Shown piece by piece: positions 1 through 36,094 of a DNA stretch of 64,000 bases; positions within the stretch are counted from its first letter, which is position 1, and each line of letters starts with the position of its first letter. Origin of the DNA: Dictyostelium discoideum. Its lineage: Eukaryota. The stretch is from contig CM000151.3 in the NCBI GenBank assembly GCA_000004695.1, forward strand, positions 4,320,001 through 4,384,000, read 5' to 3'. The notes below the pieces were generated by a model. The model did no database searches and was not told the DNA's origin. It saw nothing but the letters and a program-made list of their open reading frames with translations. The position numbers and the translations under genes were made by a program.

Positions 1-460
1 TATTACTGCTATTATTACTATTATTGTTGTTGTTGTTGTTGTTATTATTATTATTATTGCCGATGTTGCTATTGTTATTATTATTACTACTGCTGTTGCT
101 ACTGCCTGTGTTATTATTGTTATTGTTGTTATTGTTGCTGCCAATACTACCGCTATTATTGCTATTGCTATTGTTATTGTTGCTGCTGCTGCTGCTGCTG
201 TTATTGTTATTATTATTATTTGAAGGACGGGGTTGTGAATTATTTGGTAACTTTATATTGGAATTTGATATATTTGGTCTGATAGAGTTATTATTAAATG
301 GATATGACGGAGTTGTTCTATTTGAGCTATAACACATTTGAGGAACACCCTTTATAATACATCTTGAACAAGGTGTTTTCTCATCACATTCGACCATATC
401 TTTTTGACAAAGAAAACATGATTTCTCTGATGTTTTTCTTTTTCTTGGATGTAAATCCAT
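1..460 (-). CDS. Partial CDS whose 3' part lies beyond the window start: N-terminal Zn(2)-C6 (GAL4-like) zinc-cluster motif followed by an N/S/G-rich low-complexity region. Putative transcription factor.
   Basis: A minus-strand ATG at about 458-460 opens a frame that reads without stops to position 1. The translation begins MDLHPRKRKTSEKSCFLCQKDMVECDEKTPCSRCIIKGVPQMCYSSNRTTPSYPFNNNSIRPNISNSNIKLPNNSQPRPSNNNNNNNNSSSSSSNNNNSNSNNSGSIGSNNNN... The cysteine spacing CX2CX6CX5CX2CX8C fits the Zn2Cys6 binuclear cluster. The plus-strand poly-Leu ORF 24..332 in the ORF track is the antisense artefact of this N/S-rich region. Confidence 0.45.
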   Translation of the reverse strand, partial: MDLHPRKRKTSEKSCFLCQKDMVECDEKTPCSRCIIKGVPQMCYSSNRTTPSYPFNNNSIRPNISNSNIKLPNNSQPRPSNNNNNNNSSSSSSNNNNSNSNNSGSIGSNNNNNNNNNTGSSNSSSNNNNNSNIGNNNNNNNNNNNNNSNNSSN

Positions 461-827
461 TCTTTATTTATTTTTATATGAATTTTTTTTTTTTTTTTTT
501 ATTGTAATATATATTTTATTTTATTTTTTATTTTATTTTATTTACTTATGTAATTTCTAATGCCTGATATTTTTAAAAAACAAATAAAATGAAAAAAATA
601 AAAAAAATAAAAAATTCAACAAAAAAAAAAAAAAAAAAAAAAAAATGAATGAAATAATTTTTTTTTTTTTTTTTAATTTTTAATTTTTTTTTATTTTATT
701 TAATTTAATTATTAAGAAAATACAAATTTGTATTATCTTGATTTGATAAATATTATTACTTTTTTTTTGTATTTTTAAAATTTTTTTCATTTTTTTTTTT
801 TTTTTTTTTTTTTCGTTTTTTCACAGT

Positions 828-2705
828 TTAATTATTAATTGGTAAATAACCAGCACGTTTCTTATAACGAATATAACCATATGCTCCACCAGCAACAGTA
901 CCCAAGACAGCAACGATAATTAAGAAAACAGCCCAACCTGGTAATTTCTTATGAGATTGTTCTTTTGAATTAAATTTAATTGAGACAATACCATCATCAG
1001 AGACGGAAACAGAGTAATCTAAAGTGGTGGCTTGACCATTTGTAAGTGGAACGATGGTTGAGAAAGTACCAAGAGTGCTACCAGCACATGAGATGATTTT
1101 ATAGGAATCACCATCACTTGGATTGGTATCGGTGATATCCATGATAAGGGTACCATTGAGTACTAAATTACCGTCGACAGTGATAAGAGCGCCAGCATCG
1201 GTAGAGAGTGTCTCTGCGATGAAAATGGTGGATTCAGCATCCATTTCCAAGTTACCAGCAACAGCGAATTGTTCAGAGGTTTGATCCATATCCAAAACGG
1301 CACCACTTGTCATAATTAAATCACCATTGATAGTAGCGATGGATTGTGGATGAATTCTACCGGCGATCAAATCAACTGAGCCACCAATGATACCACTATC
1401 AATACCAATGTATGAGTCTTTATCCAATGTATCGATTGAACCAAAAAAATTGACTTGATTGAATGCAAGATTACCTAAAAGATTAATTGGATATTTTCGA
1501 ACCCAAGAATCGAATGGACCATTCAAAGTGTTCATTGAGGCATCACTGAAAACGATTTGAGTGAGATTGGTGGAGATGTAACCCAATGAATTGCCACCAT
1601 CAAATTGAACGCTTGGAGTTGGTTGATGGTCTGGATTGATTACAAATGATGATTGTTTATCAGTTAAATGACCAAATGTACAATTTTGAACAAATAGATT
1701 CAAACCACCTGCAACAGTTACACTAATACCCACTGAATTAACATTCCATAAATAACATTCGGATTCAACATTACCTTGCTTGTTGATGTCAAATGTGATT
1801 TGACCATTACCTTGGACACCATTTGCGAAGTTTCCTTTTGGATGGAAACAAATTAAGTTGGCATTTTGTAAGTTAATGCTTGGGAAGTTTGCTGATGCTG
1901 AACCAGAGATGGTGAGATTAGCATTGGTGACCTTGATACTTGGATTACCAGTGTATTTGAATGAATCTGCAATGGTAAGAGCACCACCTTGAACGATGAT
2001 ATCATCATTGAGTGTGACAATCTCCAAATTGGATTGACCATAGAATGTGGTTGGACCAACAATGACTCTATCGTCGGAATTGATACCTGCATTGAAGAAA
2101 CATTCGTTGGCAGTTAAAATTGAATTATCAGTGAATGTTACAGTGGTCCAAAATTGAGCGACACCATTGATTAAAACATTTGAGAATGATTGTGCAGAGA
2201 ATTGGGAGTTTTGATCAGTGAAAATATCTTTAAATTGAAGAATTGAATAGGATGCTTGCATTGTGGATCCGAAAAGTAAGAATTTACCATTAACCTCAAC
2301 ATCATAACCAAATTGAGTGATATTGTTACTCTTTTCATTGTCAAATACAATTGTTGCACTATTGTTACCTGTGAACCCACCTGTCACTTGCATGTTGGTG
2401 TTTTGGAATGATACTACAACATTGACTGCACTTGTACCAACGATATTAATACTTGTGAATATGTTATTGATACCAGAAGCTACAATGAAAACTTGTTTAT
2501 TAGCGTTGGTAACCTTGGTGAAATCAATTACAACATTACTATTATTACTTGGAACTGCTCCTTGTTGCCAATTTGTTGGATCTGTGAATCTACATGGATT
2601 TTCTTGTGCACCACATAATGTTGGATCAAATGCAAAATTAAATGTTTGTGCTGAAATAATTCCAATAAAACAAATTAAAACTAATAATAATTTTATAATA
2701 TTCAT
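828..2705 (-). CDS. Type I membrane glycoprotein with a signal peptide, an N/T/G-rich repetitive ectodomain that may form a beta-helix, a C-terminal TM helix and a short basic tail. Function unknown.
   Basis: ORF-track 625-aa ORF. The N-terminus MNIIKLLLVLICFIGIISAQ is a typical signal peptide. The ectodomain has many N-x-S/T sequons and short repeated strand-like segments (NANLTISGSAS, VNVVVSF and similar). The C-terminal hydrophobic helix is WAVFLIIVAVLGTVAGGAYGYI, followed by RYKKRAGYLPINN. No catalytic motif recognised. Confidence 0.7.
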   Translation of the reverse strand: MNIIKLLLVLICFIGIISAQTFNFAFDPTLCGAQENPCRFTDPTNWQQGAVPSNNSNVVIDFTKVTNANKQVFIVASGINNIFTSINIVGTSAVNVVVSFQNTNMQVTGGFTGNNSATIVFDNEKSNNITQFGYDVEVNGKFLLFGSTMQASYSILQFKDIFTDQNSQFSAQSFSNVLINGVAQFWTTVTFTDNSILTANECFFNAGINSDDRVIVGPTTFYGQSNLEIVTLNDDIIVQGGALTIADSFKYTGNPSIKVTNANLTISGSASANFPSINLQNANLICFHPKGNFANGVQGNGQITFDINKQGNVESECYLWNVNSVGISVTVAGGLNLFVQNCTFGHLTDKQSSFVINPDHQPTPSVQFDGGNSLGYISTNLTQIVFSDASMNTLNGPFDSWVRKYPINLLGNLAFNQVNFFGSIDTLDKDSYIGIDSGIIGGSVDLIAGRIHPQSIATINGDLIMTSGAVLDMDQTSEQFAVAGNLEMDAESTIFIAETLSTDAGALITVDGNLVLNGTLIMDITDTNPSDGDSYKIISCAGSTLGTFSTIVPLTNGQATTLDYSVSVSDDGIVSIKFNSKEQSHKKLPGWAVFLIIVAVLGTVAGGAYGYIRYKKRAGYLPINN

Positions 2706-2794
2706 TTTTTGATTTATTTATTTTTTTTTTTTTTTCCCTCTTTTTATTCTTTAATTATACACAAAGAAAAAAATAAAAATAAAAAATTTTTAAG

Positions 2795-2825
<31 letters not shown>

Positions 2826-2858
2826 GAGTGAATGATTGATTTTATTTAAAAAATTTCG

Positions 2859-2889
<31 letters not shown>

Positions 2890-3023
2890 AAATTTTTTTT
2901 TTATTTTTAAAATATCTATATTTTCCCAGGCAACCATAATTGATAAAATTCCCAATTACCTCGACTTTTTGATTACAAAAGAAAACACAAACCTTTATTA
3001 TTAATAGAAAAATTTAGTTATAA

Positions 3024-3059
<36 letters not shown>

Positions 3060-4544
3060 ATTTAAATATATTATATATAATCAAGAAAGAAATACATATT
3101 CTTTAATTCCATCATATATTATAAATTACATGTACCCAAAATAATAATGATGATAATAAAATAAAAAATAAAAAATAAAATAAATAATTGAATAATTCCT
3201 AAATTAATTTTTTTTATATTCGTTAGTTTTTTTTTTTTTTTTTTTAATAAATTTCTAGTATTGGTTAAATGTATTGGGTGGTAATTTTATAGTTATAATT
3301 GAACAATTGAGGAAAAATATAACCATTTAAATTAATATATATATATATATATATATAAATTTTCTTTTTTTTTTAATTAATGTGTTTTTTTTAAAAAAAA
3401 AAAAAAATAAAAAAAAAAAATCAACAAAGAACATAAAACAGTTTGACATTTTTCCTTTTATAAAAAAAATCTTAATTTAAATTATTATAATAAACATCAA
3501 AAACAGAAAAATGGATTAAAGACTGGATTATCAATTTTTTTTCATTGAAAACTCTTTTTTTTTTTTGTTTTTTGTTTTTTTTTTTTTTTTATTTTTTTTT
3601 CATTTTATTTTTTTTTTTTTTATTTTTTTTTTTTAATTAATTCTACATAAAAATTTTTTTTTTTCTTTTCATTATTTTTTTTTCATTCTTTTCGAAAAGA
3701 TTTTTATAAATCATATAATATCTTCATACTCTGGTTTCGCAGATTAAAAAAAAAATAAAAAAAAAATAACAAACAAATAATAAATAAATAACAAGGAATT
3801 AATTAAAATAAATAAAATAAAATAAAATAAAATAAAAACAACTCATTCAACTAATAGATAAATAAAAAAAATACAACAAGAAAAAAAAATAAAAAAAAAA
3901 ATAAAAAAATAAAAAAAAATAAATAAAAAATAAAACTTTTTTTTGACTGTCTTTTATAAATAATATTATTATTTTTTTTTTTTTTTTTGAGTTTATTTTA
4001 TATCAAAGAAAAAAATAAAATAAAAAAAAAACCAAGTGTCTTTTATTCATATGTTTATAAATCACACACCACTCTAATTTGTTGTAAATTGAAAAAGAAA
4101 AATAAAAAATAAAAAAATAAAAAAAAAAAAATAAAAAATAAAAAATAAAAAAAAAAAACAAAAAACAAAATAAAACAAAAGCAAAAACATTTTTTATTTT
4201 TTATTTTATTTTTTCATCAATTATCACTATAAAGCTCAAAAAAGAAATAAAAAGAAATAAAAAGAAATAAAAAAAAAAGAAAAAAAAGAAAAAAAAGAAA
4301 ACAAAAAAAAAAAAAAAAAAAAAATCAATAAAGAAAAAAAAAAAAAAAAATAAATCATTAAAAAATATTTTCAAAGTCAAACAAATAAAGTTCACCACCT
4401 TAATGATTACTACTAATAGAATTAATTATAATTTTCAACAACTTCATACACACACAATTATTACAAATAATTTTCATTTCCACCAAAAGAAAAATAAACT
4501 AATTATAACACCAAGATTATAAATAAAAAAAAAAAAATAAAAAA

Positions 4545-5835
4545 ATGTCAAGCACACCAAATAATAATAATAATAATAAGTAAGTATATTTCATGTTAAA
4601 AAAAAAAAAAAAAAAAAAAATAAATAAGTAAAATAATAAAAACTCATATTAATCTTTTTTTTTCTTCTCACCAAAATTTATTTATTTTATTATTTAAATA
4701 GGGCAGAAAATCAAGCCGATTTCGTAGATGAAGAAGAATGGGCATTTGTAGATCTATGGGATAAATATGATCAAAATCTTTTAGAGAGATTTTGGAATGA
4801 ATTAGTTAAAACAACTTTTAACACTTCAGATATTCAGCCATTGAACGATTGGAATAAAGCAATGTCACCAGAGGCTCATAATAATCCTGATATTCCAGAT
4901 TTACACATATTATTAGCTTTTAAAGCAAGTGATTTGGAAACAATTAAAAATTCAACAGAGGCATTTACAACTACAAATACCTCACCAAGAAATACTTCCA
5001 CAGGTGATAGCAATACAAATACATTTAATACTGGTGGTAGCGGTAGTAGTGGCAATAGTACAACAAATACAACCCCTACTACACCAATTATAGTTACAAC
5101 ATCAAATAGTATTAATATACCAACTAAATTAACCTCATCAACAAGTAGTACATTGATACCAACAGCTATACCAGTTGCAACTCCAACAACTCCAACAACT
5201 CCAACAACAACAGCAACCCCAGCAATTCCAACAACAACAACAACAACACCAAAATCACCAATTTCAGATGACTTGGAATTGTCATCATCATCTTCTTCAA
5301 CTATGAGTAGTATTGATTCAAATTCAACATCATCATCAGCTGTAATTAGTCCAACACCAATTCCATTCATCAATACAAGCACAAACATTTCATCATCACC
5401 ATCTTCAACAATTGTTAGTACTCTAGGTAAAGTAACACCACCACAGATTTTAAATAATCGTACTCAAATTATTGCTGGTGTAATTTTTGAATATTATTCA
5501 AATATTAATTGTGGTTTATTTTTACATATGATTATTCAAAAAAAATTTAGAAATATGGTAAGTAAAAATTTAAATAATTTTTTTGTTGTTTTTTTTTTTT
5601 TTTTTAAAATAAATATTAAATTTTTTTTTAATTTATTACTATTATTTTTAGGGATTAGAAGGATTATTAGTTAAAAGAGCAATTGAAATTTTAGATAAGA
5701 ATGCACATTCTCATGGTCATTTAGCAGGTTGTAATGCAATTTTCTTTGAAACTAAATCAGCATCAAATCCAGCTGGTACCAGTACCAGTACCAGCACCAG
5801 TACTAGTACTAGTACTAATTCTAGTGGTAGTAGTA

Positions 5836-5934
<99 letters not shown>

Positions 5935-8900
5935 GTAATAATAATACTTTATGTGTATCTACAAGTGGTGGAAGTAGTCATCAAGATATTAATAAAATTG
6001 ATCCAAGACAACAACATTCAATTTTACATAAGATTGGATTTAGATTAGTAGATTTTGATTATACAAAACTACCATTAAAGAGATTAGGTAAATCAAATAA
6101 TCTCCTATTGACAGTTTATCTTTCGCCACATATACCATCACAAAGTAGTTTAGATGGTGATAAATATTATTTACCATCAGTATTATTAAAGAATTTCGTA
6201 TATGACCTTTGGGATACATCTTATTTGACAGAAAAAGTTAATAGAAAACCAGATGAAGATCCAGAATATGGAAGAGCATTGGAACAAATCGAATTACGTG
6301 AAAAGATACCATTGTTAGATTTACCATGGGGTGCAGGTAAACCATGGACATTAGTTGACCTCTATGAGGATTATGATGAAGAATTATTGGAACGTTGTTA
6401 TAGAGAAGTCATGGTACCAAGTGTGAAACATAGTGAAATTCCTTCACTTGGTAACGTTTTAAGGGCAATGTCTCCCGAGGGTGATGATTCATCCTATCTA
6501 CCAGATGTTCATGTCCTTTTAGCAGTACGTTGGCCAACTGATTTCCATAAGGATGGCAATTCATCATCGCCAATCATCGATGGTCTTTGTGTTTTCGAAT
6601 ATCATACCGAACAAAATTGTGGAATACTCACTCATTTAATTTTACAAAAAAAGAATAGAACATCATTGAATGATGGTTTGGATAGTTTATTAGTGGATAG
6701 TGCCGTAGATATCCTTGATACCAATGCAAGAGAACGTGGTAATTTGGCAGGTTGTAATGCAATTTTCATTCATATTAAAAATGCCCCAACTTCACCAGTT
6801 AGTCCAGATGTTGTTGATATTTGTCAACATCATATGGTATTATATAAAATGGGATTCAAACTTTTAGACTTTGATTTCTATATACCACCATTGGATTTTC
6901 ATTCAGCACCAAAGAAAATGATGTTAGGTTTATTCATTACACCATTGATCCCAAAATCAAATGAAAAAGGTGATCGTCCATTCATTCCATCAAATCTATT
7001 GAAATTATTTGTTGAACTTCAATGGAATAATGCTTTTGGTTCAGAACAAATTAAGAATTCACCAAATACCTACTTGGAATATCAACGTATGATTGAACAA
7101 ATAGAATTACGTGAACGTATTTCATTATCGGATTTACCATGGGATGCAGGTAAACCATGGACATTGGTTGATCTATGGGAAGATTATGATCAAGAGTTAT
7201 TGGAACGTCTATACAAAGAGATTATGATACCAAACTTTTCAAATAAACACGAATTGGAACCATTGGATAATTGGTTACAAGCATTTACTTCAGAGAATCG
7301 TGATGATCCAAACATTTCCGATCTTCATATACTATTGGCACTTAGATGGAGCGATAATAGTTCACAACCAATCATTGAGGGTGTTATCATCTTTGAATAT
7401 TTCTCTGCAAATAATTGTGGTCTATTAACTTATTTAATCGTTCAAAAAACATTTAAAGGTAAAGGTTTGGATAGAATCCTCGTGGAAACAGCAATTGAAA
7501 TCCTAAATCAAAATGCAAAGAGTCAAGGTTTCCTTCCAGGTTGTAATGCAATCTTTTTGGAGGTTTACAGTGGTGAAAAGGTAACTTTGAAACAAGATGT
7601 AGTCGATCCACGTATGAGACATTCCATCTATCATCAAATTGGATTTAGATTGATAGATTTCGAATATGTTGCACCACCATTAGCTTTGACTTATCCAAAG
7701 TTAAAACATTTCCTTCTCACAGTTTATCTTACCGAACATATTCCAAAGATGCCATTGGAGGAGGGCAAATATTATTTACCAAGTAGCGTTTTAAAGAATT
7801 TTATCACCGTCCTTTGGAAGAATGCAATTGCAACCAAGAAAATCATTAAACAACCACAAAGAGATTCAGATTATGTTAGAATGGTCGAACAGTTTGAGTA
7901 TCGTGAAAAAATACCATTGTTAGATTTACCATGGGGTGCAAGTAAACCATGGACATTGGTTGATCTTAGAGACGATTATGATGAGGATCTTATGGTACGT
8001 TTTTACAATGAGTTGATGTTACCAAATTTCCCAGTGAAAAATGAATTGGAACCATTATCAAATTTCATTAGTGCTCTCTCTGAAGAGAGAAGAGAATCAT
8101 TCAATCCACATTTATCAGAGGTTCATGTTTTATTGGCATTGAGATGGCCAACCGATTCATCCGATTTACAACCAACCATTGGTGCTGGTATTATTTTCGA
8201 ATATTTTTCAAATACCAATTGTGGTTTACTTTCCTATTTGGTGGTACATCGTTCTTCAAGAGGTCAAGGTTTGGCTGGTATTTTGGTTGAACGTGCAGTG
8301 GAACTATTGGATAAACATGCAAAAACTCGTGGTCAATTGGCTGGTTGTAACTGTATTTTCTTGGAAACCAATTCTGCTGAAAAAGTAACCGTACAACAAG
8401 ATGTTATGGATCCACGTATGAGACATACTATCTATTATAAAATGGGTTTCAGAATGATCGATTTCGAATATATTATGCCACCACTTTTTCAAGGTTTTGA
8501 AAAATTACGTGGTGTACTCTTATTGACAGTTTATTTAACTCCTCATATTCCCTATCAAGATGTCAATGGCAAGAAACAATACTATCTACCAAATGTTTTA
8601 TTAAAGAATTTCATCTCTTCACAATGGGAGAATGCATTCCGTAATTCACGTCTCTCTGTTAGACCAAGTCAAGATATCGATTTCACAATGTCATTGGATC
8701 AATTGGAGATTAGAGAACGTGTACCACTATTGGATTTACCATGGGGTGATGGTAAAGATTGGATGATAGTTGACCTTTGGGAAGATTATGATCAAGAGTT
8801 ATTGGATGCTTTCTATAAAAAGTATATGATCACTCAGTTTGGTACTTCCGATGAATTAGAACCATTAGAGAATTGGCATAAAGCTCTCTCAACCGAGGGT

Positions 8901-10064
8901 CGTGATGATCCTAATATTTGCGATCTTCATGTCCTATTAACATTGGGTTTGCCAGGTGAACATAAAGGTAAAGGTCATAAATATATCATTGGTGGTTTGG
9001 TTTTCGAATATTATCCAGAGACAAATACAGCATTGGTCACTTACTTGGTTGTAAATCAACGTTGGTCCGGTAAAGGTATTGGTACTGACTTAATTTTACG
9101 TACTCTCACAATTCTCGATCAAAATGCAAAACAAAAAGGTCATATAGCCGGTTGTAATGCAATTTTCTTGGAAGTTATGTTCTTACCACAATCGGGTGAA
9201 TCAGACTCTTCATTGAGTCATGTTTTCCTTTTCAATAAAGGTTTCCGTTTATTGGATTTCGAATATTATCAACCACCAACCTCTTTAAGAAATCCAAAAT
9301 CAAATAATGTTTGTTTAACCGTTCTATTGACTCCACGTATTCCAAAGCATGGTGTTGGTAGTGAAATTCAACCATTTGTACCATCTTCTTTGTTACGTTC
9401 ATTCATTACAACTCTATGGGAAGATGAATGTGGTTTAATTGGTTATAACTTTGAATCTGATCCATGTTACCTTAGAATGATGGAACAATTGGATGGTAAT
9501 GATTATTTCCATTGTTTAGATTTACCTTGGATTAAACATAGAATCGATCAAAATTCAATCAATCCAAATAATTCCACTCTACCACATATAAACTTTTCAA
9601 ATTCTTTTAATAATTTAAATATTAGTTATTCATCACCAAATCCTGTACATTTAAGAGATTTTAAAAATCAACAACAACAACAACAACAACAACAAGTACA
9701 ACAATTACAACAACAAGTACAAAAAGTACAACAATTGACAGCTGGTACTAATTTAGGTGGTAATAGTTTAAATTCAAGTGGTAGTATTTATAATAATAGC
9801 GGCGATAAAAAATCATCACTACCACCATTACCAAATCCAAATAACCTTAGTAATAATTATGATAGTGATCATCTTACAAAGAATAAAAATTTATTAAAAG
9901 TTTCAACACCAGATGGCAATAGTTCCTCTGCTCCTGGTTCACCAATTTTATCTCCTCAATCAATGAATTCAGTTTTCCCACCAAACGCTCCTTTATCACC
10001 TGCTCTTTATCCTTCAAATTTAAGTAATTCAACATTGGCCCAAAGAGTTACATTGGATAAATAA
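4545..10064 (+). CDS. Large protein of about 1767 aa built from five tandem GNAT-like (acetyltransferase-fold) repeats of about 215 aa each plus a degenerate sixth, with a poly-Asn insert and a Q/N/S-rich tail. Three exons.
   Basis: Exons (approximate): 4545..4579 (MSSTPNNNNNN, donor gtaagt); 4702..5557 (acceptor aatag; donor gtaagt after ...IIQKKFRNM); 5652..10064 (acceptor ttttag; stop taa). The track ORFs 4841..5674 and 6108..10064 are joined by intron 2. I checked the frame from 5652 to 6108 codon by codon and it has no stop. Each repeat carries the block YYLPS.LLKNF..LW....IELRE.IPLLDLPWGAGKPWTLVDL.EDYDEELLER.Y.E.M.P...ELEPL...A.S.E....P...DLH.LLALRW....QPII.G...FEYF...NCGLLTYL.VQK...GKGL...LVE.A.E.L..NAK..G.L.GCNAIFLE......V....DV.DPRMRH.IY...GFR.IDFEY. 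This matches GNAT motif A (R/Q-x-x-G-x-G/A, for example HRSSRGQGLAGILVE and NQRWSGKGIGTDLIL) plus a motif-B-like N..A..lY...GF. Repeat 1 is interrupted by a T/S/P-rich insertion of about 160 aa and a (AAT)31 poly-N tract. Intron 2 falls inside motif A. Confidence 0.7.
5838..5930 (+). repeat. Perfect (AAT)n microsatellite of about 31 units, in frame, encoding poly-Asn within the GNAT-repeat gene.
   Basis: Uninterrupted aataataat... run. It reads as Asn codons in the reconstructed gene frame. The ORF track translates another frame as poly-Ile. Confidence 0.9.
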
Positions 10065-10477: not shown

Positions 10478-10519
<42 letters not shown>

Positions 10520-12238
10520 TTTTAATTTTAAATGTAAAAGTTAAGAAACTAACAAAACAATTAAAAATTTATATATAGTTCAGATGCAGGTGAAGCATTA
10601 TTCTTATCAAACTATTTAGATGACCACAAAACCGCAAAACAGAAATCTTGTGTTGATATTGGTGCACCTTTTCAATCATGTGATAAATTATTAGAGATTG
10701 ACTCTAACCTCAGAGATACAGAAGATTTCTTTACATTCACTGGTTTCATCACTGTAAATGAAACTTATAATAGTAATACTTTCTTTTGGTTTTTAGAATC
10801 TCAAAATGGTGATAAAAACTCACCCTTAGTTATCTTTTTACAAGGTGGTAAGTATTTTTATTTTTATTTTTATTTTTATTTTAAAAACAATTTAAAATGT
10901 ATATTAATATTATTTATTTATATTTATTTATATAAAAAAAAAAAAAATATAAAATAGGTCCAGGTGGTGCATCAACTTTTTCACTTTTTGTTGAAACAGG
11001 TCCATATGAACTCCTTGATAATTTCACTTTAGTACAAAGAGAAATTACATGGAATTCAGAATTTGCAATGTTATATATTGATAATCCAGTTGGTACTGGT
11101 TTTTCATTTACTGACTCTCAAGAGGGTTATTCAAATAATGAAGATGAAATTGCAACAAATTTATACACCTTTTTACAACAATTTTATAAACTTTATCCAG
11201 AATATTACACAAATGAATTATATATAACTGGTGAAGTAAGTACAAATCAAATATTTAACATTTTAATTCAATTTTAATACTAATTTTATAAAATAATAAT
11301 AAATAATAAATAATAAATAATAAATAATAAATAATAATTATTTAGAGTTATGCCGGAAAATACATTCCAGCATTTTCATATCACATTATCCAACAAAACC
11401 AAAACTCAAATAATCCAAATATTAATCTTAAAGGTATTGCAATTGGTGACGGTTTATGTGATCCAATTACCCAAGTAACTCAATATGCAAACCTTGCATT
11501 CTATACTGGTTTAGCTGATCTCCAACAACAAGAAGTTATGTTTGAATATCAAGATAAAATTGTTGAAGCAATTAATCAAGAACAATGGTCAGTTGCAAAC
11601 GATTTATTCACTGATTTAATTAATGGTCCACCAGATTATTTCCAAGTAAATATATAGTTTTTTTTATTTCCTATTCTTATATAAATGATTAATTAGTTTT
11701 TTTTTTTTCTTTTTTTTTTTTTTAAAATAAGAATATTACAGGTGAATCAGATTATTATGATATTCGTAAAACTGTTGAACCAACATATGGTGGTGATTTT
11801 ACAGCATTTTTAAATCAATCTTCAATTCGTGCAATGATTCATGTTGGTAATAATTATTTTCAAAATAATAATGATGTTTACATTCATTTAGAACAAGATA
11901 TTCCAAAATCAGTTAAACAATTATTCCCAACCATTTTAGATAATATTAAAGTTATTTTATACAATGGTCAATTTGATTTCATTGTTGGTCCATCTCTCAC
12001 AGAAACAATGATTCGTACTATTGAATGGGAAGGAATTCAACCATTCTTAGAATCACCAAAAATCATTTGGAAAATTCCATCAGATAATGTTGATGTAGCC
12101 GGTTTTGTTAGACAATGGAATAGTTTCACTCAAGTTGTTGTACGTCAAGCAGGTCATATGGTACCTTTGGATCAACCTGCACGTGCTTTTGATATGATAG
12201 ATAGATTTATTAACAATGAACCTTTTCCATCAGGTTAA
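10307..12238 (+). CDS. Serine carboxypeptidase (peptidase family S10) with a signal peptide. Five exons.
   Basis: Exons (approximate): 10307..10455, 10579..10847, 10958..11235, 11346..11645, 11732..12238. All donors are gtaagt or gtaaat and all acceptors are ag. The spliced protein is MKVSLSFLLTILIVIITIKVNLSQ...FFWFLESQNGDKNSPLVIFLQGGPGGASTFSLFVETGPYEL...LYIDNPVGTGFSF...LYITGESYAGKYIP...GIAIGDGLCDP...VVRQAGHMVPLDQPARAF...PFPSG. The oxyanion/GGPG block (QGGPGGAS, spliced across intron 2), the catalytic-Ser motif GESYAG (spliced across intron 3) and the catalytic-His motif AGHMVP are hallmark S10 motifs. Reading frames are consistent across all junctions. Confidence 0.85.
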
Positions 12239-12351: not shown

Positions 12352-13848
12352 TTATAATTCAACAAATCCAATATTTGATGGCTTTGATTCTATACCATTA
12401 TAACTTGTAACAACAATACTATATTTTCCATAAGGTATATTAAACATTTTTGTTATGAATTCTGAATTAATTGATCGTTTAATTTTATATCTTAACCATG
12501 TATTATCTGATCTACTGATATAAACAAAGTATTTGATTTTTTGATTACTTTTTTCACTTTTAAAGGAATTTGATTTAAAAGTGATTGATACATCCATATT
12601 AAAATAATATTGTTTTTCAATTGTACAATTGATAATTTGAGGTGGTAATAATTGTTCAAGTTGATTGGTAAATGATAAATTATAAGTTAAGGAGTAATTT
12701 CCATAATCAAGATTATGGTTTTCAACAATAATATAAACATGTTTACCATTTGCTGTCATTCTTAATTGCCTATTATCATTTGATCTATCAATAATAGTGG
12801 TTAAACTTTGACCATATCTAATATTACAACTTCTCATTGAACTATATTTATAATAATTATAAGCTTTTCTTGATTCTAATAAACATATTGAATAGGTGAA
12901 TGGCATAACTCTATTAGCTATTGGATTTATTGACATTGTAATTTCCGTATTACCCTTAACATCACAAGAATATTGATGATATTGATTAAAATTATTATTA
13001 TTAAAACCATTATCTTTTTTAAAATTACAATAATTATTACAAGGTGAATAATCATCATTTCTTAAAAATTCTAAATATGAGTCTAAAAAGTGTAATTGGT
13101 TTATTGATTTAATTTTTTCAATATTATTTTTCAAATAAATTGTATTGTTAATTGAATGTTTAAAAATTGTATTTGAAACGTATGGGTCTGTTATTCTAAT
13201 AGTATCATTATAATATGAATTTACATATCTACGGTAGGTAAATTTATTTATGTTTTGTTTAACATAATCTAAAAATTTATCATCACCAATTGCAGGTTGG
13301 CCAAATGTTACACATGTAATTGATTTTATATATTTTTCATTAAAACGTTGAATTGAGATATCTAAAGTTGCAAAAAATGCAATTACACCGCCAACTGAAT
13401 GACCAGTAAAATAGATATCATAGGGTTTCTCACATGAATCAATAATGCTATATAATTGAATATATAAATCATAATATTCACCTTGAAAACCATTACGAAC
13501 TTCACCACATCCTTTTGGATCAATATAACAATCAACTTTGAAATAATGGGCATTATCTTCGATATTAATTGAATTGTATTCTTTAAATGAAATTATTAAA
13601 TTATTGGTAATGGATGATTTATATGCTAAAATCTTAGAATTATCCAATACAACCTCCCATTCCAAACAATTGTTTTTATCACCTAAAGAAATAAATTGAT
13701 TTTGTTTAACTGCTAATGGATCATATATTAAATCTGAAAAGTATGCAAAAATATAATCTCCATTTTTACCAATTATTGAACTATTTGATCTTTTAAGATT
13801 TATTAATAAATTTATTATCAATATAAAAACTATTGTTTTAAAAAACAT
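12352..13848 (-). CDS. Secreted class-3 (fungal-type) lipase-like protein, paralogue 1 of 4, with a novel Cys-rich/beta-rich C-terminal domain of about 230 aa.
   Basis: Single-exon 498-aa ORF. Signal peptide MFFKTIVFILIINLLINL. Lipase_3 signatures: ...LIISFKEY..., CGEVRNGFQGEYYDLYIQLYSIIDSCEKPYDIYFTGHSVGGVIAFFATLD (nucleophile elbow GHSxG), ...FGQPAIGD... The C-terminal half has conserved Cys pairs (SPCNNYCNF...YSCDV...YSICL) and ends ...YSIVVTSYNGIESKPSNIGFVEL. It converges tail-to-tail on the carboxypeptidase gene with an intergenic gap of about 113 bp. Confidence 0.85.
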   Translation of the reverse strand: MFFKTIVFILIINLLINLKRSNSSIIGKNGDYIFAYFSDLIYDPLAVKQNQFISLGDKNNCLEWEVVLDNSKILAYKSSITNNLIISFKEYNSINIEDNAHYFKVDCYIDPKGCGEVRNGFQGEYYDLYIQLYSIIDSCEKPYDIYFTGHSVGGVIAFFATLDISIQRFNEKYIKSITCVTFGQPAIGDDKFLDYVKQNINKFTYRRYVNSYYNDTIRITDPYVSNTIFKHSINNTIYLKNNIEKIKSINQLHFLDSYLEFLRNDDYSPCNNYCNFKKDNGFNNNNFNQYHQYSCDVKGNTEITMSINPIANRVMPFTYSICLLESRKAYNYYKYSSMRSCNIRYGQSLTTIIDRSNDNRQLRMTANGKHVYIIVENHNLDYGNYSLTYNLSFTNQLEQLLPPQIINCTIEKQYYFNMDVSITFKSNSFKSEKSNQKIKYFVYISRSDNTWLRYKIKRSINSEFITKMFNIPYGKYSIVVTSYNGIESKPSNIGFVEL

Positions 13849-14241: not shown

Positions 14242-15810
14242 TTATTTCAGAGTATTTATAAATGCAATATTGGAGGGTGAAGATTGGATATCATTATATT
14301 CTGAAAAAACAACTATACTATATGCTCCTTTTGGGATATCATCTATAGTTTTTGAAAAGTAATTATTATTTTGGTGTGGTCGAATAATTGTCTCTTTATA
14401 TTTTTTCCAGTTTTGCCCAATATTACTAATGAATATATTATATATTGTATTATTAAAATTGTTGTTATTATTATTATGATCTAAATCATTGATACTAAAA
14501 TTAACTTGTAATTTAATAAGATCGTTTTTTATTTCTAAAATATCAGCTGTTAAATTTGTTGGTGGATTTGGAGTTTGATATGGGCTCTTTATTGAAATAT
14601 TATAAGAAAATGAGGATGTCCCTAAAATTGAGTTATGGTTTTCAACTACAACAATAATTTCATTTAAATTTTTAATTCTTTTTGAAACTGATCTAAAATG
14701 TTCTGTCTTATCTACCATTGTTATTGGTTGTTTATAATCTTTATAGTAATTTAAATTACAACTACTAAATAATGTAAAATCATAGTGTTTAAATTGATTC
14801 CTTGATGTAAATAAACATACAGAGTATTTATCAGGTAGAATACCTTTTGGATTAAATTCACCATTGAAAATACATTCATTTTTAACCATACAATGATATT
14901 CTTTAAATTTTGAAAATTTTGCATTCTTTTCAACAAATTTACAATTAGTATTACATTGTGAATAATTTGGATTAAATGTATTTAATAGGTAAAGATCTGA
15001 TGAATGTAAACCCAATGGAAAATTGGGACAACTGTGTTTTTTACAATTTAAAACAATTATTGATTCATCTGCGACCTTTGGATGATAAACATTAAATATT
15101 GACATTATTTCAACAACAGGATCTTCATGATACTTTTTAAAATCAGATGAACGATGTTTATGATTATTAATATTAACGTATCTTCTATAATTTATTTTTT
15201 TAATTGATGATAAAAACAATTTATTAAATTGTTCATCTCCTACTGCAGGCTGACCAAATGTTATACAATTAATAGATTCAATGTTTTTTAAATCATTTTG
15301 ATAAGAATAATATACTGAAGCTAATAATGCAACAGCACCACCAGCCGAATGACCAGTAAAATAAATATCATATGGTTGGTCTAATGATTTTATTATTGAT
15401 AACATTGTATTTTGATTAAAATAAAATTGATCTTGAAAACCAAAATGAATTTTACCACATTCAATATTCCATGGTTTTAATAAAAAACAAGAAATTAATT
15501 TTAAATCAATATCAGATGCAAAATCTTTAAAATAATGAGTTCCTTGAATTGAAATAACCAAGTTATTCGTATATTTTGATTTAAAAATCATCATTTTATT
15601 TTCATTTACAATTATTTCCCATTCTTCACATTCACCATTAATTTTTATTAATTCAAATTTTGAAAATTCTTTATTATTTGTTTTATATACTAAATTTGAA
15701 AAGTAAGCAAATATATGATCTCCATCTTTATTTATTTTTGAAGATAAAATTAAATTTATAAAAATTAATTTAAATAATATAATTATTAAAAATTTTATTT
15801 TAAAAAACAT
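14242..15810 (-). CDS. Secreted class-3 lipase-like protein, paralogue 2 of 4.
   Basis: 522-aa single-exon ORF. Signal peptide; VISIQGTHYF (RGT-like block); PYDIYFTGHSAGGAVALLASVYYS (GHSxG); FGQPAVGDEQF. The Cys-rich C-terminal domain ends YSIVVFSEYNDIQSSPSNIAFINTLK. Collinear with paralogues 1, 3 and 4. Confidence 0.85.
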   Translation of the reverse strand: MFFKIKFLIIILFKLIFINLILSSKINKDGDHIFAYFSNLVYKTNNKEFSKFELIKINGECEEWEIIVNENKMMIFKSKYTNNLVISIQGTHYFKDFASDIDLKLISCFLLKPWNIECGKIHFGFQDQFYFNQNTMLSIIKSLDQPYDIYFTGHSAGGAVALLASVYYSYQNDLKNIESINCITFGQPAVGDEQFNKLFLSSIKKINYRRYVNINNHKHRSSDFKKYHEDPVVEIMSIFNVYHPKVADESIIVLNCKKHSCPNFPLGLHSSDLYLLNTFNPNYSQCNTNCKFVEKNAKFSKFKEYHCMVKNECIFNGEFNPKGILPDKYSVCLFTSRNQFKHYDFTLFSSCNLNYYKDYKQPITMVDKTEHFRSVSKRIKNLNEIIVVVENHNSILGTSSFSYNISIKSPYQTPNPPTNLTADILEIKNDLIKLQVNFSINDLDHNNNNNNFNNTIYNIFISNIGQNWKKYKETIIRPHQNNNYFSKTIDDIPKGAYSIVVFSEYNDIQSSPSNIAFINTLK

Positions 15811-16030: not shown

Positions 16031-17566
16031 TCAAATTATTTTATTTTTATTATCTAATCCATTAACAAAACAATAATTAGAAGTTTTGGATTCTATTCCA
16101 TTATCACTTGTAGATACAATACTATAAAGACCATCTTTTTTAAGATTTTTTATAATTTCATTTAATTCTATTTTTGATAATGGTTCAACAAATTCATATT
16201 TAATCCAATCTTTTCCAATTTCACTTAAATAAATATTATATTTCATTGTTGGTTGAATTAATGAAATAGTATTATTTGATTTGAATGAAACTGAAATATC
16301 CATTGAATTTTCATTTGTTGAAATTATTTTACATGTTAAATTATTTGGTGGTTGTGGTACTTGAATTGTACTAATGAATGAAATATTGAAAGCAAGAGTT
16401 GAAGTTGAAAAGAATAAATTATGATTCTCTACAATTATAAATAAATCAGAACCAGAAACAGTCATTTCAAACTCCATTGCATTTGTTGTTTTATCAATTA
16501 AAATATTAGATTTACCACCACAAATATTATTTTGACTATATTCATATTTATTAAAATCATCTTTATTTGTAAAAATACAAACTGAATATTTATCAGTGAA
16601 AAAACCAGAACCTGGATAAAAGTGACCTTTAATTGTCGATTCTGAAGATGATGGACAATGATAAACTTGTTTTTTTGTAATTTTTGGATTTTGGAATAAA
16701 AAATTACAATTTGAATTACATTTTGAATATTTATCATTATAAAGTTTATCTTTATAAAGATCCAAGAAATGTAAACCTAAAGAGTAATTTGGACAATCAT
16801 TATTACAATCTAATAGAATTGGACTATTATTTGGATGTGGTACCGATAAGAAATTCACTACTGGATCTTCAATGGTTTTATTATTATTTAATTGTGCAAT
16901 ATTATTAATATTAATATAACGACGATACTGAAATTTATCTAATTTTAAATTTGCAAATTTATTAAATTCAAAATCACCAATTGAAGGTTGTCCAAAAGTT
17001 ATACAATTAATAGAATGAATTATATTGAGATCTTTATGATTTGTAACATAATCCAATGATGCTAATAATGCAGTTGAACCACCTAATGAATGACCAGTGA
17101 AATAAATATCATATTGTTGATCTAATTTTTTAATTGTTGATAAAAGTAATAAACTAATTTCATTATATTTCTCTTGAAATCCATTACGAATCTTTCCACA
17201 ACCGCCACCTCTACCACTACCACCACCACCCCATAAATCATTATTTACTATTAAATTACAATTTGAATATTTGATATCTAAATCAGCTTTTATATCTTCA
17301 ATACTGCTTGTACCTTTGAATGAAACCACAACAGTATTACTAAATTTTGATTTCCAAATATCCATTCCACTACTATCAATTATAATTTCCCATTCCATAC
17401 ATTTCTCATTCAATTGTAAATATTCATTTCCTGTTATCGGTCCATAAACTGTATCTGAAAAATATGCAAATAAAAAATCACCTTCTTTTTTAATTATTGA
17501 ACAATTTATAATTGCAAGTATAATTAAATTTATAAATAATAATAAAGTTATTTTAAAATTTAACAT
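16031..17566 (-). CDS. Secreted class-3 lipase-like protein, paralogue 3 of 4, with a Gly-rich insertion before the catalytic region.
   Basis: 511-aa single-exon ORF. Signal peptide; VVVSFKGTSSIEDIKADLDIK; an insertion WGGGGSGRGGGCGKIRNGF; QYDIYFTGHSLGGSTALLASLDY (GHSxG); FGQPSIGDFEF. The C-terminal domain ends LYSIVSTSDNGIESKTSNYCFVNG. Confidence 0.85.
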   Translation of the reverse strand: MLNFKITLLLFINLIILAIINCSIIKKEGDFLFAYFSDTVYGPITGNEYLQLNEKCMEWEIIIDSSGMDIWKSKFSNTVVVSFKGTSSIEDIKADLDIKYSNCNLIVNNDLWGGGGSGRGGGCGKIRNGFQEKYNEISLLLLSTIKKLDQQYDIYFTGHSLGGSTALLASLDYVTNHKDLNIIHSINCITFGQPSIGDFEFNKFANLKLDKFQYRRYININNIAQLNNNKTIEDPVVNFLSVPHPNNSPILLDCNNDCPNYSLGLHFLDLYKDKLYNDKYSKCNSNCNFLFQNPKITKKQVYHCPSSSESTIKGHFYPGSGFFTDKYSVCIFTNKDDFNKYEYSQNNICGGKSNILIDKTTNAMEFEMTVSGSDLFIIVENHNLFFSTSTLAFNISFISTIQVPQPPNNLTCKIISTNENSMDISVSFKSNNTISLIQPTMKYNIYLSEIGKDWIKYEFVEPLSKIELNEIIKNLKKDGLYSIVSTSDNGIESKTSNYCFVNGLDNKNKII

Positions 17567-19291: not shown

Positions 19292-20830
19292 TTAAATTAA
19301 TGTTGAATTACCAAAAATGTAAGCAAAATTAGAAGCATGTGATTCAGCTCCATTGTCAGCAGTAACAACAATACTATAAATTCCATTCATCGGAATGTTT
19401 AAAAATTTTGAAACAAATTTAGTTGTTGCAGATTCAATGAATTCAAACTTTGACCATTCTTTACCAATTTCACTTAAATAAACCCTATATATAATTAAAT
19501 TATATAAACTATAAATGTGTTGTGGTAATTGGTGATAGTTAAAAGAGACCATAATACCAATTGTATCATTTTTTAAAGATGACACAGTACAAGATAAATT
19601 TGTTGGTGGTGAAGGTGCAGTAATTGAATTTGTAAATGTGATATTATAAGAGAATGACGAAGTTGCGAATAAATTATTACGATTTTCAACAACCACATAT
19701 AACTCTTTGCCTTGTAATACCTTTTTTTCAAACATAGTTCTATTTGATGTTTTTTTAATTATAATTGAAGTTGCATTTGAATTTGTACCTGATTTCAAAT
19801 TACAATCAGTTGATTGTTTATATTCATATTGATCGAAATCTTGAGCTGAAGTGAATAGACACACAGAATATTTATCAGGCATGATACCTTGTGGATTGAA
19901 TGATCCCTTGATTAAAGACTCCTTATTTATTGGACATTTGTAGGACTGATATTTATAAATATTTGCATTGGATTCTTCAAATTTACAATTTGAACTACAT
20001 TCCGAATAATGTTGATTAAAAACATTACCCAAATATAAATCCATGAAATGTAAACCCAGTGGTACCATTGGACACCTGGTTTTTAAGCAGTCCAACATGA
20101 TGGCATTGGTTGGGTGTGAGAATATTGAATTTGGGATGGGATCTTCTTGAGGTGATAGACCGAGTATGGCCGTTTTACTATTATAATTTACATAACGACG
20201 GTATTGGAATCTTTGGGAGTAAAACATCAAACTGTTGGAAAACTGCTCATCGCCCACAGCCGGTTGACCAAAAGTAACACAGTGGATTGATTTAATGTAT
20301 TTTTGTTTTTGTCTTTGATTCACTGTATAATCATAGGCGGCAATCAATGCCAATGCACCGCCTAGTGAATGACCGGTGAAATAGATATCATATGGTTGAT
20401 CTAGTGATTTAATAATTGATAAGAGGATATCATAAGTTTCGTAATACTCTTGTTGAAATCCATAATGAAGTTTACCACATCCACTTGTAATATTACATGT
20501 TGTTGGTACAATTTTAATATCTGTAATAATATCTGAAAATCCTTGTGTACCTCTAAAAGAAACTATTAAATTATTACTAAATTTCGATTGAAATATCATA
20601 ATTCTACTATGATCTAATATTATTTTCCACTCCATACATTCTCCATTTAATGAAATGTATTTATATTGTTCACTATTGGTATTTGTTGATTTTGGCATAT
20701 AAACAATATCTGATAATAATCCAAATAAATAATCACCATCTTCTTTTATAATTGTTCCATTATTAAAATCTATTAGATAATTTAAAATTAATAAAAATAT
20801 AAATAAAATAATTTTAATTTTAAAAATCAT
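19292..20830 (-). CDS. Secreted class-3 lipase-like protein, paralogue 4 of 4.
   Basis: 512-aa single-exon ORF. Signal peptide; IVSFRGTQGFSDIITDIKIV (canonical Lipase_3 RGT block); PYDIYFTGHSLGGALALIAAYDY; FGQPAVGDEQF. The C-terminal domain ends YSIVVTADNGAESHASNFAYIFGNSTLI. Confidence 0.85.
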   Translation of the reverse strand: MIFKIKIILFIFLLILNYLIDFNNGTIIKEDGDYLFGLLSDIVYMPKSTNTNSEQYKYISLNGECMEWKIILDHSRIMIFQSKFSNNLIVSFRGTQGFSDIITDIKIVPTTCNITSGCGKLHYGFQQEYYETYDILLSIIKSLDQPYDIYFTGHSLGGALALIAAYDYTVNQRQKQKYIKSIHCVTFGQPAVGDEQFSNSLMFYSQRFQYRRYVNYNSKTAILGLSPQEDPIPNSIFSHPTNAIMLDCLKTRCPMVPLGLHFMDLYLGNVFNQHYSECSSNCKFEESNANIYKYQSYKCPINKESLIKGSFNPQGIMPDKYSVCLFTSAQDFDQYEYKQSTDCNLKSGTNSNATSIIIKKTSNRTMFEKKVLQGKELYVVVENRNNLFATSSFSYNITFTNSITAPSPPTNLSCTVSSLKNDTIGIMVSFNYHQLPQHIYSLYNLIIYRVYLSEIGKEWSKFEFIESATTKFVSKFLNIPMNGIYSIVVTADNGAESHASNFAYIFGNSTLI

Positions 20831-36023: not shown

Positions 36024-36094
36024 TGCGTATGCTGGGAATCGAACCCAGTTCGCATCCGTGGCAGGGATGCATCATACCACTAGACCACATACGC
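36024..36094 (-). tRNA. tRNA-Gly (anticodon GCC), 71 nt, no intron.
   Basis: Reverse complement of 36024..36094: GCGTATG TG GTCT AGTGGTA TGAT G CATCC CTGCCAC GGATG CGAA CTGGG TTCGATT CCCAG CATACGC A. The acceptor stem has 7 perfect base pairs. The D-loop is AGTGGTA with the conserved GG. The anticodon stem CATCC/GGATG has 5 bp. The anticodon loop C-U-GCC-A-C has U33, anticodon GCC and A37. The variable loop is 4 nt. The T-arm is CTGGG-TTCGATT-CCCAG (T-psi-C-G-A consensus). Confidence 0.85.

Follow-up and report, generated by a model that had tools for sequence, protein, structure and literature searches.

A five-GNAT array in a single Dictyostelium discoideum protein: conserved modules with one canonical and one degenerate candidate active site

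GNATs are among the most studied acyltransferases. Chains that carry the GNAT fold twice are described as 'rare', with typically one domain active (PMC12219266), and among bacterial lysine acetyltransferases the double GNAT is represented only by Eis (PMC6456759). The double-GNAT proteins (N-myristoyltransferase, MshD, Eis, the clavulanate protein ORF14 [PDB 2wpw], VipF, and NAT16/HisAT) hold more than one GNAT fold per chain by internal duplication, with copies that diverge in the coenzyme A (CoA) loop and in catalytic residues. We find the same situation, at a larger scale, in a gene of Dictyostelium discoideum contained in a window of 64,000 nucleotides (GenBank assembly GCA_000004695.1, contig CM000151.3, positions 4,320,001 to 4,384,000 of the forward strand; positions below are those of the window). 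Its 1767-residue product comprises five complete units, each a GNAT domain plus an extension, followed by a 177-residue tail rich in Asn, Gln, Ser, and Pro. In the literature, even a duplicated GNAT fold counts as rare and mechanistically informative.

An earlier note, made from the DNA sequence alone, had proposed a 1767-residue product that starts at the ATG at 4545 and is interrupted by two introns. Our reconstruction reproduces this model:

4545..10064, + strand: whole gene, three exons, 1767-residue product; ATG at 4545, TAA stop at 10062-10064
4545..4579, + strand: exon 1, coding for MSSTPNNNNNN plus 2 nt
4580..4701, + strand: intron 1, GTAAGT...ATAG, 122 nt, guanine-plus-cytosine (GC) content 11.5%
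4702..5557, + strand: exon 2, GC 32%
5558..5651, + strand: intron 2, GTAAGT...TTAG, 94 nt, GC 6.4%, interrupting motif A of repeat 1
5652..10064, + strand: exon 3, 1470 codons without a stop (frame open over 5652-10061)

Both introns have GTAAGT...AG borders and a low GC content, as is typical of dictyostelid DNA (exons and coding sequence 32–33%; introns and flanks 6–14%; introns alone 6–12%). Exon 1 supplies the start codon because exon 2 has no in-frame ATG ahead of repeat 1. The motif-A consensus is restored by one of three in-frame splice combinations and by no other GT..AG pairing; the chosen combination gives ...IIQKKFRNMGLEGLLVKRAIEILDKNAH..., in agreement with the other repeats and with the close orthologue P0019. 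At intron 2, which does lie within motif A of repeat 1 as had been suggested, splicing yields ...FRNMGLEGLLVKRAIEILDKNAH..., the counterpart of ...FRNMGLERLLVKKAIEILDRNAH... in P0019. Neither a signal peptide nor a type 1 peroxisomal targeting signal (PTS1) was visible by eye in the 1767-residue product, and the locus is read as a single gene giving one polypeptide of cytosolic type.

The repeat period is 263–271 residues, repeat 1 being longer owing to two low-complexity loop insertions. The units are arranged as follows:

4739..6344, + strand: repeat 1, residues 25-528; motif A RNMGLE, β5 FFETK; two disordered loop insertions and intron 2
4931..5452, + strand: Thr/Ser/Pro-rich low-complexity insertion in the β2-β3 loop of repeat 1, about residues 89-262
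5757..5987, + strand: Ser/Thr and poly-Asn insertion in the β5-α4 loop of repeat 1, about residues 333-409
6345..7157, + strand: repeat 2, residues 529-799; motif A R-TSLN-DGLD, β5 FIHIK; the most degenerate copy
7158..7949, + strand: repeat 3, residues 800-1063; motif A KGKGLD, β5 FLEVY, α4 IYHQIGF
7950..8759, + strand: repeat 4, residues 1064-1333; RGQGLA, FLETNS, DPRMRH, IYYKMGF; fully canonical
8760..9530, + strand: repeat 5, residues 1334-1590; motif A SGKGIG, β5 FLEVM; closes with the last LDLPW

The motifs quoted in the earlier note are readily located and recur in register: GCN[AC]IF at residues 323, 664, 927, 1195, and 1464, LDLPW at 519, 790, 1054, 1324, and 1586, and, in addition, xVDL[WYR] at 27, 532, 803, 1067, and 1337. 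Linkers between modules measure 6–10 residues (…LDLPW-GxGKP-WTLVDLW…). The chain opens at strand β1 (WAFVDLW, residue 25), and its final ordered element is the fifth LDLPW (residues 1586–1590); the single-domain relatives P0069 and P0076 likewise have β1 at their start and the extension at their end. The unit is therefore a GNAT domain followed by its extension, which reverses the order given in the earlier note, where the extension preceded the GNAT fold and the module of about 215 residues was out of phase with the actual period. That note counted about six repeats, five near-complete and one degenerate. The five stand; the stretch matching a sixth is the C-terminal extension of unit 5, and we rejected it as a repeat. 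The two insertions it described in repeat 1 (Thr/Ser/Pro-rich and poly-Asn) are present, and the one in the β2-β3 loop recurs in shorter form in P0019. The repeats are 35–55% identical to one another, and the least similar pair (repeats 2 and 5) matches by BLASTP with E = 5e-51 at 37% identity. A family hidden Markov model (HMM) identifies five domains in the product, with independent E-values of 1e-72 to 1e-123, and has no match outside this gene over the whole 64-kb window.

We used an indexed search, which returned only 18 fragmentary matches that all cross repeat boundaries (including Heterostelium album PPL_11814 and PPL_11816), and an exhaustive profile search of proteins (266 profile positions), which returned 1059 proteins at E ≤ 0.001 and 427 at E ≤ 1e-10. 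The close orthologue P0019 (1518 residues) agrees with the window protein in its five units and its tail motif, the distant relative P0020 (1980 residues) also has five, and P0021 has four. Repeats 1 to 5 are 72, 81, 85, 83, and 91% identical to the P0019 repeats at the same positions, compared with 35–55% between paralogous repeats, which points to an old array under selection. Against P0020, the best-matching pairs include repeat 4 with repeat 4 and repeat 5 with repeat 5. On these identities, the five modules arose as paralogues long ago, and each has been maintained at its own position in relatives. Other dictyostelids also encode a second, three-repeat paralogue (D. purpureum DICPUDRAFT_5127 [P0023], Synstelium polycarpum [P0022], and H. 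album EFA76800 [P0025]), in which unit 1 is canonical, unit 2 degenerate, and unit 3 heavily inserted. EFA76800 carries a 'histidine kinase' label; Pfam shows GNAT domains only. In a neighbor-joining tree (rough, distance-based, and without bootstrap), all multi-repeat units fall in one amoebozoan clade, with the single-domain eukaryotic, oxidase-fused, and bacterial members outside it.

Two further loci bear on how such arrays are annotated and built. In H. album, P0010 (PPL_11814) consists of joined pieces of repeats 1, 2, and 3, and P0013 (PPL_11816) covers the last stretch of repeat 4, a portion of repeat 5, and the tail; a single gene with five repeats has probably been mis-annotated here as fragments. 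The locus L001 of another organism (positions 1-3971) holds at least four repeats, each broken after '...VPNFP..DG' and before 'ELEPL'. From these breaks in the open reading frame (ORF), each repeat there apparently contains a short intron, which suggests that this intron was part of the duplication unit. The window gene has no intron at that position.

Several lines of evidence confirm the GNAT fold that had been assigned to the repeats. Repeat 3, modeled with AlphaFold2 from a 13-sequence alignment (predicted local distance difference test [pLDDT] 88.3, predicted template modeling score [pTM] 0.87), shows the GNAT order of elements (β1-α1-α2-β2-β3-β4-α3-β5-α4-β6-β7) and then a family-specific β-α-α-β extension. 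A Foldseek search with the repeat model placed 3ey5 first and PaiA (1tiq) second, also with NatC among the top matches; the structural neighbors after 3ey5 include Naa50, Naa10, Naa60, Ard1, RimI, and NatC. We rejected a non-GNAT fold. Profile matches are graded along the chain: when the spliced protein was scanned with Pfam, repeat 4 passed the PF00583 cut-off of 20.7 bits with a score of 22.7, repeats 5 (18.2) and 3 (17.4) fell below it, and repeats 1 and 2 gave no match. The orthologue P0019 scores 55.9 bits against the GNAT Pfam profile. When the family profile was searched against PDB sequences, no match was significant (best E = 0.14), and NCBIfam holds no family for the repeats, their single-domain relatives, or the bacterial relatives. 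In a model of repeats 2–5 (1068 residues), each domain folds with a mean pLDDT of 81, and the mutual arrangement is poorly predicted (pTM 0.47).

The same GNAT-plus-extension domain occurs singly in other eukaryotes and in bacteria. These relatives (P0069 from Diphylleia rotans, P0076, P0085, and P0072, and bacterial proteins of the P0146/P0068 type) match the profile with E-values of 1e-20 to 1e-32 over positions 4–235 of 266. The domain that they have in common with the repeats begins at β1, extends through the C-terminal strand, and contains FEYY..N.G, R-G-x-G, (F/L)ETN..P, and YVQP.L as well as the helical extension. They differ from the array in having one domain (two in P0042 and P0068), often joined to other fusion partners. 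Among the longer relatives, six (P0089, P0097, P0106, P0111, P0118, and P0122) carry a canonical family GNAT followed by a flavin amine oxidase domain (PF01593), and P0121, judged by eye, has the same layout. Five of these seven fusions end in a PTS1-like C-terminus (-SKL, -AKL, or -AHL). The oxidase part is nearest to LSD1, spermine oxidase, and maize polyamine oxidase, and Pfam scans detected no SWIRM domain in it; these fusions may represent a peroxisomal acetylation-oxidation enzyme. In the literature searched, we found no description of fusions between a GNAT and an oxidase of the polyamine oxidase/LSD1 type. Other partners are a PH domain (P0042, with two GNATs) and an ADF/cofilin domain (P0123). 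Bacterial members (L002 8001-11417 [P0068], L004–L012, P0146, P0150, P0154, and P0155) carry one or two GNAT-plus-extension domains and come from metagenome-assembled genomes of Nitrospiraceae, Phycisphaerales, Hydrogenedentes, Bacteroidota, Draconibacterium/Prolixibacteraceae, Spirosomataceae, Hyphomicrobiaceae, and others. Their uncharacterized C-terminal region of roughly 450–650 residues has no Pfam or NCBIfam match and ends in hydrophobic segments that probably span the membrane.

Comparison with this wider family provides a means of ranking the five modules. The family-wide consensus comprises FEYY..N.G (β3-β4), a loop R-G-x-G-x-[AG], '(F/L)ETN' at the end of β5, 'D.m.P..Rh' ahead of α4, 'GF', and 'YvqPpL'. 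The family-invariant FEY, N-C-G, G-C-N, and α4 His are present in all five repeats, as is a conserved acidic β1-α1 loop (W-E-D-Y-D-x-E-L-L), and every repeat is acidic (pI 4.9–6.1). Beyond this common core the modules diverge. Repeat 4 has the loop RGQGLA, the β5 Glu (FLETNS), and a Tyr four residues before the Gly of GF (IYYKMGF), and shows all consensus features in every lineage examined. Repeat 5 has a near-canonical loop (SGKGIG), retains the β5 Glu, and has Leu at the α4 position. Repeat 3 (loop KGKGLD) retains the Glu and has Tyr at that position, and repeat 1 (RNMGLE) retains the Glu and has Leu; both loops end in an acidic residue. In repeat 2, the loop is R(TSL)NDGLD (R-x-DGLD in relatives), the β5 Glu is replaced by His or Gln in every orthologue seen, and the α4 residue is Leu. 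The earlier note had seen an acetyl-CoA-binding motif A (Q/R-x-x-G-x-G/A) in each copy; this holds for repeat 4 and nearly so for repeat 5, while repeats 1, 2, and 3 deviate by ending in an acidic residue. It had also called motif A of repeat 2 degenerate, which is correct; the repeat has also lost its β5 Glu. In a weak hhalign match to RimI (probability 42%), the β5 Glu and α4 Tyr of the repeats fall on Glu103 and Tyr115, with the RimI sequence checked against 5isv; these RimI residues are the proposed proton acceptor and proton donor, respectively (PMC3347575).

The interpretation we favor, with somewhat better than even confidence, is an acetyl- or acyl-CoA-dependent N-acyltransferase whose modules are not equivalent, repeat 4 being the main site and repeat 2 a pseudo-enzyme, with a cationic amine as a speculative acceptor. 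Repeat 4 is predicted to be the most likely catalytic site because the consensus of the wider single-domain family is complete in it, with R-G-x-G-L-A as pyrophosphate loop, Glu in β5 (within 'FLETN'), and Tyr in α4. CoA binding, and full or partial activity, may extend to repeats 3 and 5 and perhaps to repeat 1. Repeat 2, its β5 Glu lost and its CoA loop disrupted, would most likely be a pseudo-enzyme with a role in structure or in substrate binding. A canonical loop is confined to one unit in the distant P0020, as it is in the three-repeat paralogue; this pattern, together with the comparison of repeats and the one-active-domain rule of double GNATs, favors a mixed array. The mixture of active and pseudo-enzyme repeats considered in the earlier note thus has partial support, from a repeat 4 that is canonical throughout and a repeat 2 that is degenerate. 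As to the acceptor, a polyamine, a basic protein tail, or an N-terminus is weakly hinted at, because relatives are fused to oxidases of the polyamine oxidase/LSD1 clade with peroxisomal ends, and because the modules and their β1-α1 loop are acidic.

Several observations weigh against this interpretation. The Asp or Glu at the last position of motif A in repeats 1–3 is no proof of lost CoA binding; single-domain relatives do not conserve the α4 Tyr, which may thus have no catalytic role in the family; and the alignment that equates it with Tyr115 of RimI is, as stated, a weak one. Between close species, conservation is highest in repeat 5 (91%) and not in repeat 4, in keeping with an important role for repeat 5 as well, and the low pTM of the repeat 2–5 model means that the arrangement of domains is poorly predicted. 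The oxidase-fused relatives share only 25–30% identity with the repeats and fall into a clade of their own in the rough, unbootstrapped tree, and the top structural neighbors after 3ey5 are protein N-terminal acetyltransferases, which suit a protein substrate equally well.

This last point leads to the most credible competitor, a protein acetyltransferase (N-terminal or lysine) in which the extra GNAT modules dock the protein substrate; we regard it as possible, though distinctly less probable than the interpretation above. It draws on the neighbors Naa50, Naa10, Naa60, Ard1, RimI, and NatC, on the Glu/Tyr pair of repeats 3 and 4 that aligns with the RimI catalytic pair, on fused oxidases that are as near to the LSD1 histone demethylase as to polyamine oxidases, and on single relatives fused to an ADF/cofilin and to a PH domain. 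However, structural neighbors of GNATs predict substrate poorly, and Foldseek also places PaiA, a polyamine acetyltransferase, second; moreover, the fused oxidases lack SWIRM and have PTS1-like ends, as suits peroxisomal polyamine oxidases. More speculative, and held only tentatively, is an elaboration of our own proposal in which the catalytic repeat 4 would be flanked by diverged GNAT pseudo-enzymes acting as built-in modules that bind or 'read' a polycationic substrate, for example polyamines or basic protein tails. The protein would then be the largest known member of an undescribed subfamily, defined by a GNAT core with a β-α-α-β extension, ranging from bacteria to eukaryotes, tied to flavin amine oxidases by fusion, and forming amoebozoan arrays of five and of three. 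If true, this would amount to a writer-plus-readers design, which has not been described for GNATs.

The remaining alternatives concern the number of active modules and the integrity of the gene. A covalent 'multi-enzyme' in which all five modules are active, with differing acceptor or acyl-CoA specificities, would be in keeping with the conservation of each repeat at its own position (72–91% to P0019 vs 35–55% between repeats), with the invariant FEY, N-C-G, G-C-N, and α4 His, and with the β5 Glu of repeats 1, 3, 4, and 5. We consider it unlikely, since the β5 Glu of repeat 2 is His or Gln in every orthologue seen, that repeat has an interrupted pyrophosphate loop and no Pfam GNAT signal, P0020 keeps a canonical loop in repeat 4 only (repeats 2, 3, and 5 being degenerate or carrying large insertions), and one half is usually inactive in known double GNATs (PMC12219266). 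Less likely still is the converse, that no module is catalytic and the chain is a scaffold or acyl-CoA sensor made of GNAT-fold pseudo-enzymes. Three of the five pyrophosphate loops are off consensus and the Pfam scores are marginal (top 22.7 bits), yet repeat 4 holds the complete family consensus in all lineages, and purifying selection at the loop, Glu, and Tyr is hard to explain without catalysis or CoA binding. Finally, the repeats might be an artefact of the gene model, representing several adjacent genes or a pseudogene array, as the H. album annotation could imply by cutting the orthologous locus into the short models PPL_11814 and PPL_11816. These models are, however, chimeric pieces of the same repeats. 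The 1470-codon open frame runs from the end of repeat 1 to repeat 5 in a genome of 14–33% GC, there is neither an ATG nor an AT-rich intergenic spacer between repeats, P0019 and P0020 are single products with five repeats each, and P0024 is a Trinity transcript covering three repeats. An artefact is thus extremely improbable, and separate genes for the repeats were rejected on the open frame, the missing spacers, and the single-product relatives.

Downstream of the fifth repeat, the coding sequence continues into the tail:

9531..10061, + strand: Asn/Gln/Ser/Pro low-complexity tail, residues 1591-1767
9939..10007, + strand: tail motif SPILSPQSMNS...APLSPAL, residues 1727-1749

The motif is kept in P0019 (SPVLSPQSLNS..APLSPAL) and in Heterostelium P0013 (SPVLSPQSINS..APLSPAL), and its Ser-Pro sites make phospho-regulation possible. 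Other features of the window are:

about 10500-12000, + strand: serine carboxypeptidase S10 gene directly downstream, with a PF00450 match on exon 11068-11277
12352-13848, 14242-15810, 16031-17566, and 19292-20830, - strand: four tandem paralogous ORFs of about 500 residues, class-3 lipase PF01764
29753-32710, + strand: ORF of a RhoGEF-PH-FYVE protein
36024-36094, - strand: tRNA-Gly(GCC) gene

The lipase ORFs are a local gene-family expansion a little downstream of the GNAT gene.

The array is of interest to enzymologists and to Dictyostelium biology alike. It would offer, in a genetically tractable amoeba, a natural experiment in which catalytic domains decay to pseudo-enzymes yet remain under selection, and it would permit tests of what multivalency contributes to an acetyltransferase. 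One substrate assignment would annotate about a thousand cluster-representative proteins (1059 at E ≤ 0.001) and might reveal a polyamine acetylation-oxidation route outside animals.

Compared with the double-GNAT proteins, which have two copies, the array has five (three in the paralogue), each self-contained with its own C-terminal extension of about 70 residues. The four-repeat AlphaFold2 model aligns with ORF14 (2wpw) over one domain only (164 of 328 residues), the arrangement being poorly predicted, and in that model there is no sign of an intimate pseudo-dimer with a single active site. No Pfam match indicates sequence homology to N-myristoyltransferase, Eis, or MshD, and the PDB profile search gave only E = 0.8 to N-myristoyltransferase over 76 residues; the double-GNAT families are related to the array at the superfamily level only. 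Single-domain GNATs of the RimI/Naa type and 3ey5, a Bacteroides thetaiotaomicron protein of unknown function, share 12–18% identity with the repeats and lack both the additional β-α-α-β extension and the fivefold concatenation. SSAT and PaiA act upstream of acetylpolyamine oxidase, and the logic proposed here is alike, polyamine acetylation being followed by FAD-dependent oxidation, except that in the relatives the GNAT and the oxidase share one PTS1-tagged chain. This link comes solely from gene fusion in distant relatives, the window protein itself having neither an oxidase domain nor a PTS1; likewise, sequence similarity to SSAT or PaiA was absent from the PDB sequence search, Pfam, and NCBIfam, and the likeness to PaiA (1tiq) is at the level of the fold only. 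The array protein is thus a member of the GNAT superfamily that stands outside the double-GNAT and SSAT/PaiA sequence families and probably also outside the Naa families. GNATs are normally described with one or two folds. Our literature search found no paper on this protein, its family, or any GNAT array longer than two or three domains. What is known, then, is the GNAT fold and the double-GNAT concept; what is new is a conserved, unstudied array of five GNAT domains with a three-GNAT paralogue.

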